A stretch of 63,331 nucleotides of DNA, filler included, from Basidiobolus ranarum (Eukaryota): NCBI GenBank assembly GCA_040143965.1. It is 42 parts of 42 records of this genome, joined end to end, with 100 filler letters (N's around TTAATTAATTAA, not from the genome) between each part and the next. Parts side by side here need not be neighbours in the genome. Positions count along the whole stretch, not along the records: positions 36,328 to 37,736 come from JASJQH010005271.1; 41 more parts are not named here. The stretch is one strand, 5' to 3'. The notes under the pieces were generated by a model. That model had not been told where the DNA came from, did no database searches, and worked only from the letters and a program-made list of their open reading frames with translations. Positions 16,844 through 58,369 of the stretch are shown here, piece by piece. Position numbers and translations under genes: made by a program. The number at the start of each line of letters is the position of its first letter. Positions within the stretch are counted from its first letter, which is position 1.

Positions 16844-17587
16844 TATATTTTTCTTCTTTTGCAATTCATTTAAAGCAATCTTTGCTTAACTGGCCAGTTC
16901 TTTTATAGTAATTACAGAATGTTACTTTTCTTCTTGAAGTGTCTTTGACCTTCAAAGAGAGGTTTTCCATAACCTATTAAAGCATTTTCTTCATTCTTTT
17001 GATTAGTTCCTGATTTGTGTAAATCTTCATCCAGAAGTCTCCCAAATACAAAATTTAAGGTCAAATTTTCAGTTCTTGATTCTAGAGCCATTACTAGGCT
17101 CTGAAACTTGTGTGGCAGGCTATTCAGGACTGTAACTATGATATCTTGATCAATAGTAGGTACTCAATGCATTCCATTTCATCCACTAAAATGGTGACTC
17201 TTTTAATTAGTGATTCAATGTCTTCTCCTGGCTTCATCTTTAAGTTAAAGAATTGTCTTCTTAAAAGCTTCTTGTTGGCAGCAGAACTTGTTTGGTAGGT
17301 GTCTTCCATGGCTTTCCATATCTTCTTTGCAGTATTAGCTCTTTAACATTGAATTAGCAATTTGGCTTTAACATTAAGACAAATTGTGTTATAGGTGCGG
17401 TGTTCTTGTTTAACCTGGAGTAAAACTTTTTTTTCAATGGTTTTGCATTGATTCCTTCTCCTTAAATAGTGTCCCAATGTTCTTTTTCTTGCAGCAGCAT
17501 TTTCATTTCAATTTTCCAAACTTGATAATTGGTTGCATCCAATTTTTTAGAAGAGGGAAAAGCTCCATAAATTTGAGAATTAGACAT
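16844..17587 (-). mobile_element. Copia family C gag, decayed
   Basis: KLDATNYQVWK-like start, MKPGEDI, zinc-knuckle region; preceded by a PBS. Confidence 0.85.
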
Positions 17588-36227: not shown

Positions 36228-36465
36228 NNNNNNNNNNNNNNNNNNNNNNNNNNNNNNNNNNNNNNNNNNNNTTAATTAATTAANNNNNNNNNNNNNNNNN
36301 NNNNNNNNNNNNNNNNNNNNNNNNNNNGTGTTACTTTTCTTCTTAAAGTGCTTTTGACCTTGATAGGAAGGTTTCCCATAGTCTATTAAAGCATTTTCTT
36401 CATTCTTTTGGTTGGATCCTGATTTGTGTAAATCTTCATCCAGAAGTCTGCCAAATACATAATTT

Positions 36466-36747
36466 TGTTGAAATTATTTAGGGAGAAATATTGGTCTGGC
36501 CAGGATTTGAACCTGGGACCTCCTTCACTCTAGCAAGGTGCTCTAACCACTGAGCTACCACTCCTTGTATGCTATGCCTATATTGCTAGGGAACCTTGAC
36601 CTAGTCTGTCAATGTATGGTACTTTGGCATTTCAGCTATACAAGCAACTGAGTGGCCCTAGACTTTGTGTTCAGATGCAGTCACCATACTACATATTTTT
36701 CTCTTTGGGAATTACTGCTTGTACCACAAGTCACCATACTCTCAACA
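36466..36747. mobile_element. Solo LTR (282 bp, TGTTGA...TCAACA, TSD AATTT) containing a tRNA-like cassette
   Basis: TSD at 36461-36465 and 36748-36752; empty site visible near 17050. Confidence 0.9.
36492..36564 (-). ncRNA. tRNA-like element / Pol III promoter inside an LTR
   Basis: GGAGTGG TA GCTC AGTGGTTA GAGC A CCTTG CTAGAGT GAAGG AGGTC CCAGG TTCAAAT CCTGG CCAGACC A; perfect D and T arms, mismatched acceptor and anticodon stems. Confidence 0.85.
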
Positions 36748-36790
36748 AATTTAAGATCAACTTATCAGTTCTTGATTCTAGAGCCATTAC

Positions 36791-37241
36791 TGTCACAATA
36801 AGGAACTGGACAAGGAAGATACTTTGGCAAGAATCTTTATTGATAACTGGCATTGATCAGACTGAGGTCTGATCAAGGAAAGCAAGGAGCTTATATAGAT
36901 ATTGCAGGGTAAAAGATAATATATTGAATAGGGAATATTCTATGGCAAGTTCAAGCATTGGGGTGTTGGAGACTACCAGGACCAATACAAAGAGGGATGA
37001 TGTGGGAATGATCAGGTGACCTTTCATGGAAGGTCTTGGCAGAAATACGCTACGTGTGGGATGACACAATTGGTTAGGTTTCATGCAATGTACCAAAGAA
37101 CATGACTTCCATTTAAGGTAACCTGGATGAACTAACACAAGATTGCCAAGAATGGATGGCACAGCAGATATGATGTCATACTCTAATAATAGAAGAGTTC
37201 TATTTGCAATGGATGAGTATGCCAAGATCAAAATCATGACA
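36791..37241. mobile_element. Solo LTR family E (451 bp, TGTCA...TGACA, TSD ATTAC)
   Basis: TSD at 36786-36790 and 37242-37246; relatives at 37837-38009, 50072-50139, about 60720-60900 and 61713-61827. Confidence 0.9.
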
Positions 37242-38818
37242 ATTACTAGGCTCTGAAACTTGTGTGGCAGGATATTCAGGACTGTAACTATGATCACTTG
37301 ATCAGTGGTAGGTACTCTAATGCATTCCATTTCATCCACTACAATAGTGACTCTATTAATTAGTGATTTAATGTCTTCTCCTGGCTTCATCTTTAAGTTA
37401 AAGAATCGCTTGATTCAGCATTTTTAGATCAGCAAATTATTTATTTAATCATGCAAGCTTCTAATTGGGTGAAAATGTGAATGGATTGAGCCATATCAAG
37501 CCAATACGGCTGCTCAAGCTTTTTATTTCTCAATTCACGCTTTCTATCCTCATGAGTCTTATTGTATATTTTCTTGCAGACTTCTGAAGGCATCAAGATA
37601 TAGTATTCTCTCCAAAGCAGAGTTAAAAGTTGCTTCCACTTTTGTCTAATGCCCCCTTCCCCAGCTTCTGTCAAGTTTATCAATAACTCCCATATATCCA
37701 AGCAAGAACTCATAGTGGATACCTGGGCATCTGTAANNNNNNNNNNNNNNNNNNNNNNNNNNNNNNNNNNNNNNNNNNNNTTAATTAATTAANNNNNNNN
37801 NNNNNNNNNNNNNNNNNNNNNNNNNNNNNNNNNNNNATTGGTTAGGTTTTGTGGAATGTTCCAAAGAACATGATTTCCATATAAGGTAATCTGGAGGAAC
37901 TGACACCAGATTGCCAAGAAGGGATGGCACAGCAGATATGATGTCTTAATTTGATAATATAGAAGTTCTATTTGTAGTGGATCAGTATGCCAAGTTCAGA
38001 ATCATGACAAAAATCTTTTCTACATACATGTGCCCAAGCAATTTTATGTTGTATTGTAGGTTGATGGTCCAACATATATTCTGCACTGCTAGATTGTTAT
38101 ACTGACATTCATATTTATAGTGTAGTATTGATTGTAATCCCATAGGAGAATGGAAGGAGGGAGCAGCATGTTGCTGTAGCTCAAGTACATCATTCTCAAG
38201 GTCTTGTACCATTGTTGAGTGCCTCTAAAACTGTTGACTAATTGCTTCTGAATGCTACATTAATTGTAATATTTTGGTATTATTGCTTGTCACAGCCTGT
38301 ATACCAACTTGGTAGATTTTACTTATGAATAAATACAAATCATTATGTTGTTACACCAGAGATTCCCTTGTAATAATTCTACCCAAATTATCTTCAGTGG
38401 GATGTTCAACAGTTCACAAAGTAGCCATTTTGGAAGTTGATTTTCTTGATGGTGCTTCTGTTAACCTTGGCTCAACTATTGTTATATCATATATTTGCGG
38501 GATTACAATCTCTTCACTTGCATTATTGCTGAAAAGGAGCACACATGAAGAATCAATTAATGCTTCAGCACTACTTGAGATAGTTTCAGGCATGTGAATT
38601 CCTTCCAAAGTTGATGGTGGATTGCTAGACTGCCAATTAATTAAGTCCTCTGTTGTTGCTGGTTGTTTTCCTTTTGTGTCTGTAGGCTTTTACTTGAAAG
38701 ACAATTTTGATTTAGATTTTGAAAGCTTTTTGAATGACATTGAAATTTTCAGATCACAAATGTGGTGTAATAAAATTGCTTAGAAACAGCTTATCATAAA
38801 GCAAAATTGCCATCTATC

Positions 38819-42514: not shown

Positions 42515-43248
42515 GGACTCCACAAAGACTAGCTCACAATATCTGCATCAAATGGTTAGCATTACGCTACCAGTATTTACTTGCATTCATTCCATGTACA
42601 CAACCACAATCTTCTTAAAGAAACCATCTACCAAATATTAATATACAATAAATGTAGCTATTAAATATAATATCTATTATAGAGAATATTAAATTTTAAG
42701 TGTTTTGATGATTTCTATGTTTGTAAAAGTTGACAACTAAAGACGAGTACTATGTTTTTAGTAACCCTTTTACTCATGGTAAGCAAGTACATAATCTATT
42801 AGATGACTTTGCTCGAATTACTGTCAATGCCTTAGCGATCATTCAATATATCCCCGGAAAGTTGCCCAGTTACGTCACGCAGTCGATAGTAAGAAACTGG
42901 GTTAATGTGCAATACTTATGTGGGTTTTGAACACTCTGACTGTAAAACGTACGAGGTGGGGAACACTAAATATAGTGAATTAACACTCTTTGCCAATAGA
43001 GTCGATTAACTTGCATCCGAAATATAAATGTGAGACATTCCTAATTAGGACCAGTTTCGAATATATCATCAGTTGTCGGCCATATTCGGAAAGAGAATAC
43101 TTGAAACATAACCCCAAAGTTGGAATATTACTGTCAAGTCCGACATGACATACTCAGGACGATACGTGATCAAGGAGCATATATAATGCTCGGAATCTTG
43201 TTGATTTCAATCACACTACTACTTCCGTCATTCATATATCATTCAAAT

Positions 43249-43767
43249 ATGGCTTTCGCACTAAACTCCACTTCTGGTATTGATACCAACAAACCTGTGC
43301 TAAGAAATCTTCCCGTCTCTAAGCTCTATGAGCATGCTTTACAATATGAGAAAGGCACTTATCTCAGCTCCGCAGGTGCTATCATCACCTCTTCCGGTAA
43401 GAAGACCGGTAGAAGCCCCAATGACAAACGTATTGTTGAAGAGAAGTCCACCAGTGGTGATATCTGGTGGGGTCCTGTAAACATTCCATTGGAAGACCGT
43501 GTCTTCAGCATCAACCATGAGAGAGCTGTCGACTACCTCAACACTCGTGAGCGCCTCTATGTGTTCGACGGTTTTGCTGGTTGGGATCCCAAGTACCGTA
43601 TCAAGGTCAGAGTTATCTGTGCTCGTGCCTATCATGCTCTCTTCATGCGTAACATGCTCATCCGCCCTACTCCCGAGGAACTTGAGAACTTTGGTGAACC
43701 TGACTTCACCATCTACAACGCTGGTCAATTCCCAGCCAATCGCTACACCTCTTTTATGTGCAGCGCT
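43249..43767 (+). CDS. PCK1: PEP carboxykinase (ATP), 5' end of the downstream copy
   Basis: SGKKTGRSPNDKRIV, DIWWGPVN and RAYHALFMRNMLIRP motifs; TATATAA at about 43180; likely start is the ATG at 43249, not 43120. Confidence 0.97.
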
Positions 43768-57415: not shown

Positions 57416-58369
57416 TCTGAAATCGGCGGTGGTATTCCAAACGTCATGATTTAAGGAGATGAATTTACCTACTTTAGGATTAGTAGGTCCGGTTTGCTCC
57501 ACGTATTCTTCATACATCTCATCGATTGTATTGACTGGATCCCAATCCACAGGATCTACATTCCAAGTTACGACGGTATAACCCATACGTTTGAAAATCT
57601 TCAGAGCGGAAGCATCGGTGTCACCATAGGGTGGTCTCATACAAGTAGGCACCTTGCTGAGGATTTTAGCGAGAGCATGATTTAATCTGGTCATTTCATA
57701 GACGACTTCATCTTCATCAACCGTGATTAAATCCGTATGAGCCCAAGTATGTGAGCAAATTTGATGACCGGCATTATAAGCACGTCTCACCACATCTGAA
57801 AGTTGATAAATATTTAAGGTTGGATTTAGAGTATCAGCATTCTTTTCATTCAATCCATTCACGAAAAAGGTGGATTTCACTTTTTTGGTATCTAAATAAT
57901 CCAATAATCCCGGAGTAAGAACACTTGGTTCATCATCGAATGTTACCGAAAATGTTCCTGGTTGTGTGCATCTGGTGATGACTTGTCCTTTATTTTTATC
58001 ATCGCATCCATCGTAATTTCTTTGACATTTAGTGCCGCAATGATCCGAGGTATAACCACAGTATCCCCATTGACTACAGCATAATCCTGCTGCACAAGAG
58101 CCATATTTAGCACCACACTGTTCGTCTAAGTACTTGACAAGTGGAGTAGCGGTAGCCTTTGAAGTAGTGCTAGTGGTAGTTTTAGTAGAGGTAGAGCTAG
58201 TGATGGCTCGTGCACTTGAAGAAGTGGTAGATTGTCCAGTGCTTGTAGAACTAACCCTAAGGTTTATAGACTTGGGAGCTCAATTTGCTCTTCTGATTTT
58301 TTTATGAGGAGCAGCTTCGATAGATGTTGCAGTCAGTGCAATAAGCAGCAATGGAAGGAAAGACTTCAT
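57416..58369 (-). pseudogene. Secreted chitin deacetylase (signal peptide, S/T linker, CBM18, CE4/NodB) with one in-frame TGA
   Basis: MKSFLPLLLIALTATSIEA; CGAKYGSCAAGLCCSQWGYCG; TFDDEP, HTWAH, RPPYG, DPVDW and LNHD motifs; TGA at codon 30 (58280-58282). Confidence 0.85.

Follow-up and report, generated by a model that had tools for sequence, protein, structure and literature searches.

TRIMs that carry tRNA-derived sequence in their LTRs have been described under the name Helenus, or TRIMp3 (Kojima 2024, PMC10886601). Fungal Helenus elements generate 5-bp duplications, are mostly primed by the tRNA-iMet anticodon arm, have primer sites in common with Copia elements and have left many solo LTRs; their published hosts are Pucciniales and three Agaricomycetes, all of which are Basidiomycota (PMC10886601). 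As for the family reported here, Pol III transcription of the published Helenus elements has yet to be validated, and how the dependence of a TRIM on its autonomous partner is maintained is stated to be not known (PMC10886601). A comparable design is found in Cassandra and Ajax, which resemble the family reported here in the presence of an internal Pol III promoter that stems from the gene of a small RNA, in the LTRs of a TRIM and in the formation of tandem arrays. They differ from it in that Cassandra and Ajax carry 5S rRNA sequence with A, IE and C boxes whereas the Basidiobolus LTR carries a tRNA-like cassette, and in that transcript evidence and a terminator exist for Cassandra whereas the Basidiobolus family is known from sequence alone (PMC10886601). 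The comparison with Cassandra, drawn in a preliminary description of this locus, is apt. The same description named no fungal case; fungal Helenus has been reported (PMC10886601).

Solo LTR and TRIM family

The LTR lies in a window (the whole stretch of DNA analysed, 63,331 nucleotides from Basidiobolus ranarum) that consists of concatenated short contigs (∼1.4 kb), mostly Copia, Gypsy and DNA-transposon debris, separated between positions 1418 and 61927 by 41 identical spacers (44 N + TTAATTAATTAA + 44 N) that recur every ∼1.5 kb. The genomic neighborhood of the LTR, which is located on contig G000:C5271, is therefore valid only within 36328-37736, the other parts of the window being separate contigs. 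Elsewhere in the window, an odd contig at 7582-8996 (G+C ∼0.63, long poly-G/poly-C tracts, calls for tRNA-Ala, -Met and -Tyr) looks like an organellar piece of mitochondrial type, a chitin-binding and polysaccharide-deacetylase protein is encoded at 57416-58276 (minus strand), and a PEPCK fragment is present at 43105-43767.

The insertion is of the TG...CA type, with termini TGTTGA...TCAACA. The 282-bp length, these ends and the perfect AATTT duplication (36461-36752) agree with the preliminary description, as does the empty site that it had placed in a gag copy near 17050 (Table 1). The host contig also encodes a Retrotran_gag_2 domain (36857-37411). A second TG...CA insertion of ∼451 bp occupies 36791-37241 of the same Copia gag, 43 bp from the solo LTR, and is flanked by an ATTAC duplication at 36786-36790 and 37242-37246; sequence that starts like this second insertion also occurs at G000:C4561, where the initial six bases of the primer site of the TRIM precede it.

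Table 1. Positions in the window of the solo LTR, its parts and its insertion site.
Feature	Coordinates	Strand	Remarks
Solo LTR, 282 bp, Helenus-type TRIM (probable)	36466..36747	sense = minus	
Target-site duplication copy 1, AATTT	36461..36465	.	single copy at empty site 17052-17056
Target-site duplication copy 2, AATTT	36748..36752	.	
LTR 5′ 183 bp, presumed U3	36565..36747	-	cassette starts at LTR position 184; U3 label inferred
tRNA-like cassette, 73 nt, LTR positions 184-256	36492..36564	-	ARAGORN, Rfam
A box TAGCTCAGTGG	36547..36557	-	fits Helenus motif TRGCY/YGG
B box GGTTCAAATCC	36503..36513	-	fits Helenus motif GGTTC
LTR tail, 26 bp, 3′ of cassette	36466..36491	-	maximum T run = 3, no standard Pol III terminator
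Decayed Copia gag hosting the LTR insertion, orientation as LTR	36328..36790	-	flanks align with gag copy near 17050
Empty target site, paralogous Copia gag copy, other contig	17052..17056	.	

A search of the whole assembly, which had been proposed as a check, places ∼260 copies in the genome: a 25-mer from U3 has 256 matches and a 27-mer from the cassette has 262, while controls have none. A DNA search of the genome with the LTR (40 of 405 candidates scored) returned at least 41 near-full matches of 94-100% identity, and the loci fetched yielded 84 distinct LTR matches, 51 of them full length. The cassette is present in all 51, and no full copy without it was found; the cassette is thus a fixed property of a multicopy LTR family, as had been suggested from the single copy in the window. 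Among 31 rows labeled as solo LTRs with both flanks available, two of which actually belong to two-LTR units, the 5-bp duplication is perfect in 16 and has at most one mismatch in 21, against a chance expectation of 0.0014 per site. Exact-pattern searches of JGI metagenomes (two patterns) and prokaryote genomes (one pattern) gave no matches.

Divergence among the copies averages 6.5% and is star-like, with no pair below 1%; in a sample biased to close copies, this pattern would correspond to a single past burst. At LTR position 281 two end variants occur, ...TCAACA in 22 and ...TCAATA in 28 of the 51 full copies, which suggests that at least two source elements may have been active. The LTR of one of the host's Copia families (Copia-C, below) likewise ends in TA.

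Two LTRs flank a TRIM interior elsewhere in the genome, so that the identification of the element as an LTR, put forward on the basis of its ends and duplication, holds; a unit that is never paired, named beforehand as evidence to the contrary, is not what the genome contains. The complete unit, at C1835, comprises an LTR of 282 bp, an interior of 51 bp and a second LTR of 282 bp (615 bp in total) and contains no coding sequence. On the cassette-bearing strand, the interior starts with GGTTATGAGCCCC and ends in a polypurine tract that finishes with GAGGGGGAA; its initial 14 nucleotides form the complement of the anticodon arm in the host initiator tRNA-Met. Twenty-two interiors bearing a primer site and a polypurine tract were recovered, and the family's own LTR precedes 12 of them, 11 directly and one across an inserted Copia solo LTR. 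Only C12063 and C1835 retain both outer ends, the remaining two-LTR units being cut or truncated; the LTR pairs of these two units are identical at 252/282 and 271/283 positions, and C12063 has a 4/5 duplication, the sole near-perfect case, whereas C1835 has none. At C2117, two LTRs lie 52 bp apart with the interior missing, and this locus was rejected as a TRIM unit. Two different elements appear to have inserted at the same position in the TRIM primer site, after GGTTAT (G000:C12063 and G000:C4561); at C12063 the insert is a Copia-A solo LTR in inverted orientation, accompanied by a 5-bp duplication.

Judged from how the primer site and the polypurine tract are oriented, the minus strand is the sense strand of the LTR, which puts the cassette in sense, 26 bp from the LTR 3′ end. 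The preliminary description had instead used a TATA-like site near 36636 to read the LTR on the plus strand, with the cassette in U3 and facing outward; that arrangement is excluded. With high confidence, we assign the feature in the window to a non-autonomous 615-bp TRIM of the Helenus/TRIMp3 type, of which it is a solo LTR that LTR-LTR recombination left behind.

The tRNA-like cassette

The cassette was first described as a 73-nt minus-strand cloverleaf, 26 bp from one end of the insertion, and two programs recover it there: ARAGORN calls a tRNA that it labels Ser-AGA, and Rfam RF00005 scores 52.3 bits (E 2.3e-08) while flagging two acceptor mismatches and one in the anticodon stem. In an Rfam scan of the whole window, the LTR site yields a tRNA only and no 5S rRNA. 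The A and B boxes read as originally written, and the D and T stems of this copy are intact (4/4 and 5/5 paired), again as described; both stems pair across the 51 full copies. Two acceptor mismatches had been noted and both exist in this copy, but only A3:A70 is a trait of the family (50/51 copies), G4:G69 being private to the window copy (C4-G69 in 49/51). The irregularity of the anticodon arm is familial, since position 31:39, which is G31:G39 in the window copy, is paired in 0/51. The 3′ LTR at C1835 shows G51-C63 in the T stem in place of the A51-T63 found in 46/51 copies, a double change that preserves pairing, and the G51-C63 state also occurs in several of the published Helenus cassettes available for comparison.

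A T4+ run lies within 25 nt downstream of 128 of 130 host tRNA gene loci, whereas at most T3 follows the cassette. Sense-strand T4 is absent from 44/51 full LTRs; its absence over the whole unit is not significant alone, as 35% of shuffles also lack T4. Minimum-energy folding of the cassette with its tail was no better than that of shuffles (z −1.0). A TATA element at a fixed position is absent upstream of host tRNA genes (31/130 in a wide window), and a sigma-70 scan, irrelevant for a eukaryote, returned nothing above chance. Host tRNA genes lie in dense clusters, in which many isotypes share a few kb and Arg(TCG) copies form arrays (e.g., G000:C7711, C6957, C1890).

The parent isotype, which the preliminary description proposed to recover, did not emerge. 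Within an incomplete host sample (130 gene loci representing 33 anticodon types, from 39 loci), no parent tRNA is identifiable; the best match is Cys(GCA), at 46-49/73, a score that falls within the range between unrelated host isotypes. A motif for a version of the cassette with a paired acceptor has no match in the genome. The primer site is complementary to tRNA-iMet and not to the cassette.

Could the cassette nonetheless be a functional or near-functional tRNA, or a one-off SINE or tRNA insertion in the window copy? Both programs call it a tRNA and 19 of 21 stem pairs are kept in most copies, as a functional gene would have it. The serine call is spurious, though, because the genuine host gene for Ser(AGA) measures 82 nt and includes a long variable arm, which the cassette, with AGA at the anticodon position, lacks. 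Other points against function are the mismatches fixed at A3:A70 and 31:39, the G37/T38 of the anticodon loop and the missing terminator, and occupancy of the same place in all 51 LTRs argues against a one-off insertion, so that this alternative is barely credible. A tRNA-derived SINE has a 5′ tRNA head, an A-rich or simple-repeat tail and duplications of variable length; such an element was ruled out by the TG...CA ends, the fixed 5-bp duplications and the internal position of the cassette at 184-256. Judged by its fixed mismatches and lack of a serine arm, the cassette appears unlikely to decode, in line with the initial proposal that it was kept without its decoding function. That proposal included retention as a built-in insulator against silencing of repeats, a TFIIIC barrier by which the element or host genes would be protected. 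tDNAs serve as barriers in yeasts, and both boxes remain intact in the majority of copies. However, box divergence equals that of the remaining LTR (π 0.065 versus 0.066 at base-matched LTR sites, P=0.47), and no excess conservation of the whole cassette was found (P=0.30), in a sample of which one part had been chosen by exact A-box match. The duplication-bearing solo copies are nested in other repeats rather than located at gene borders (a repeated flank on one side or more in 21/21, and on both sides in 18), and the LTR has not been spared the CpG loss typical of local repeats: 35/51 copies have no CpG against 12.9 expected, as in the surrounding Copia LTRs. An insulator role is accordingly improbable. 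CpG observed/expected is 0.24 across the window, depletion extends to the LTRs of Copia A, B and C, and CpG positions in the TRIM interior read CG, TG or CA depending on the copy; this variation, with the depletion, suggests that the repeats may be methylated.

The box comparison also bears on the reading of the cassette as a promoter. The preliminary description had proposed to look for boxes more conserved than the rest of the LTR and took equal decay as evidence against it; decay is equal, which tells against selection on individual copies. Equal divergence of boxes and flanks is expected from neutral decay after a burst and lends no positive support to promoter function. Since box divergence fits neutral decay, it is no test of a promoter role in the source element.

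Probable Copia helpers and hybrids at the primer site

A route for mobilization can be proposed from the layout of the unit. TFIIIC would bind the two boxes in the 5′ LTR, and Pol III would start at the cassette and, because the cassette lacks a T4 terminator, would read through the primer site, interior and 3′ LTR; we consider these steps, taken jointly, to be probable. Cassette and tail would then constitute the repeated (R) end of the RNA that is used in the first strand transfer, in which case the promoter would be rebuilt in both LTRs. The TRIM RNA would be packaged in Copia particles and primed by the same half tRNA-iMet, and Copia enzymes would reverse-transcribe and integrate it. The primer site is common to the TRIM and three Copia families of this genome (A, B and C), and Copia is very likely the helper. 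After insertion, copies would decay neutrally and most would collapse to solo LTRs.

The three Copia families also meet the TRIM in hybrid elements. The 3′ end of a foreign Copia LTR precedes 10 of the 22 interiors (4 A, 3 B and 3 C), a proportion that is inflated, as normal units lose their interior as solo LTRs and assemble poorly while hybrids do not; expressed per insertion, hybrids number about 14 of ∼260 (∼5%). The joins fall inside the shared 13-bp primer site, and the outer flanks are unrelated, except in two C cases that follow Copia pol ends 83% alike. Reciprocal hybrids, in which the TRIM LTR and primer site are followed by Copia-C gag, occur at four loci, and in two A cases the TRIM LTR is followed by further Copia-A sequence. 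For comparison, 100 of 196 Copia-C starts were classified as a control: 97 have their own LTR, 2 have the TRIM LTR, 1 has another insertion and none has an A or B LTR, a comparison (2 versus 0 of 100) that is weak. Outside the set of 22 are four units that have their own LTR but a cut or deleted interior, and one junction at C1029. A Fisher test of 10/22 versus 1/29 (p=4e-4) is confounded, since solo LTRs have lost their interiors, and we place no weight on it. Every hybrid lacks at least one intact end, and the junctions are known from short assembly contigs.

The hybrids fit cross-packaging with what may be several Copia helpers. According to the available part of one account, the second strand transfer depends on primer-site homology and cross-packaged RNAs can produce hybrids (PMC6894440). 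Plus-strand strong-stop DNA could jump between co-packaged TRIM and Copia templates and so give hybrids at the primer site; because the second transfer uses primer-site homology, such a template jump would yield both hybrid forms. In the same part of that account, the second transfer is drawn within one template and recombination between unrelated elements is rare, whereas TRIM-Copia joins recur here with three families (PMC6894440). Chimeric TRIMs with foreign LTRs in sugar beet resemble these hybrids, as far as the accessible portion of that report goes (PMC13570524). The main text on Helenus does not mention Copia hybrids at the primer site (PMC10886601), and a literature search that mostly left out subscription papers found no report of them.

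Two other origins of these junctions have to be weighed. The hybrids might be chromosomal deletions or cDNA recombinants formed via the 13-bp primer site, or misjoins of short reads. In favor of such an account, every junction lies in the shared 13-bp stretch, the contigs are short and repeat-dense, hybrids make up only ∼5% of insertions, and in 2 of 10 cases the Copia LTR is a 3′ LTR with pol sequence before it. Against it stand the occurrence of both reciprocal forms, the involvement of three Copia families with unrelated flanks, and the absence of Copia-Copia swaps at the same site (0/100); an overlap of 13-15 bp is, moreover, presumably short for an assembler misjoin. Recombination or misjoining keeps a substantial share of the probability, somewhat under one half, and would leave the Helenus identity of the element unaffected; an origin of the hybrids by plus-strand strong-stop jumps, under which three or more Copia families would act as helpers, we hold to be slightly better than an even proposition. 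The junctions could also be taken to mean that the LTR belongs to an autonomous Copia with a passenger cassette, of which the TRIM is a Pol II-transcribed deletion derivative, and the six loci at which the TRIM LTR is followed by primer site and Copia 5′ interior (4 C and 2 A) are of the form that this would require. Such interiors, however, natively bear other LTRs, as 97/100 Copia-C starts do. Furthermore, no Copia polypurine tract precedes the TRIM LTR among 20 matches examined by motif, and the TRIM LTR shows no extended resemblance to the LTRs of A and B. A gag-pol interior with the TRIM LTR at both ends was not found in this assembly, the fragmentation of which limits the search. Derivation from an autonomous Copia is therefore very unlikely.

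Relation to published Helenus elements

The Basidiobolus family shows the traits by which Helenus is recognized, namely length below 1000 bp, primer site, polypurine tract, boxes, duplication and non-decoding cassette. It resembles Helenus in being a TRIM shorter than 1 kb with a sense cassette near the LTR 3′ end and boxes that fit TRGCY/YGG and GGTTC, and also in the disagreement over isotype, the 5-bp duplications, the many solo LTRs and the Copia dependence, which is here inferred. Its primer site is of the commonest fungal type, matching the tRNA-iMet anticodon arm GGTTATGAGCCC, and a 51-bp interior is shared with Helenus-1_CCin, one of the published families available to us. Most of the published Helenus LTRs in this partial set have a T4 run after the cassette, in contrast to T3 in the Basidiobolus LTR. 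In the available portion of the published consensus sequences, five of six motifs of the family are absent and the sixth occurs once, in an oyster family (PMC10886601). The accessible part of the supplement does not contain the name Basidiobolus (PMC10886601).

The host sets the family apart from published fungal Helenus, the list of which is confined to Basidiomycota. Basidiobolus belongs to Zoopagomycota, and the PEPCK fragment in the window agrees with such a host, its identity being 96%, 93% and 90% to Basidiobolus proteins and no more than 81% to the other fungi among the matches listed. A literature search, with Repbase outside its scope, found no report of Basidiobolus TRIMs or of later work on Helenus. 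What is new here is a Helenus element in an early-branching fungus, the Helenus type itself having been described in 2024.

By hand count, the cassette is identical at 59/73 positions to that of Helenus-1_AmAr, from Amylostereum areolatum, and at 56/73 to that of Helenus-1_SMo, from Selaginella, compared with 46-49/73 for the best tRNA in the incomplete host sample; the first two are the best matches within the part of ∼230 families that was available, and closer ones may exist. Helenus-1_AmAr agrees with the Basidiobolus cassette in its AGA loop and in one A:A mismatch of the acceptor, Helenus-1_SMo in the G31:G39 mismatch, and both have 5-bp duplications. The elements differ in other respects in these available entries: the LTRs are 209 bp (AmAr) and 120 bp (SMo) long versus 282 bp here, U3 and interior look unrelated by eye to those of the Basidiobolus family, and the primer sites of both begin with TGGTA, of the 3′-end tRNA type, whereas the site here is of the anticodon-arm type. 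The likeness of the cassettes, as seen in this partial set, hints that they may be related by common descent or horizontal spread rather than independent capture. The combined proposal that at least three Copia families are parasitized through a shared half-tRNA primer site and that one old or horizontally moving Helenus lineage is involved is tentative, and on present evidence we lean against it holding in full.

A practical consequence is that this one repeat can yield ∼260 false tRNA calls in the Basidiobolus genome. The family extends the range of Helenus within fungi beyond Basidiomycota, a moderate gain given that the core element type was already known. The hybrids point to three candidate helpers within a single genome, which renders the question of helper dependence testable. 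Should the combined proposal be true, a Copia-dependent Helenus lineage would span early-branching fungi, Basidiomycota and a plant, in place of many separate captures of tRNAs.
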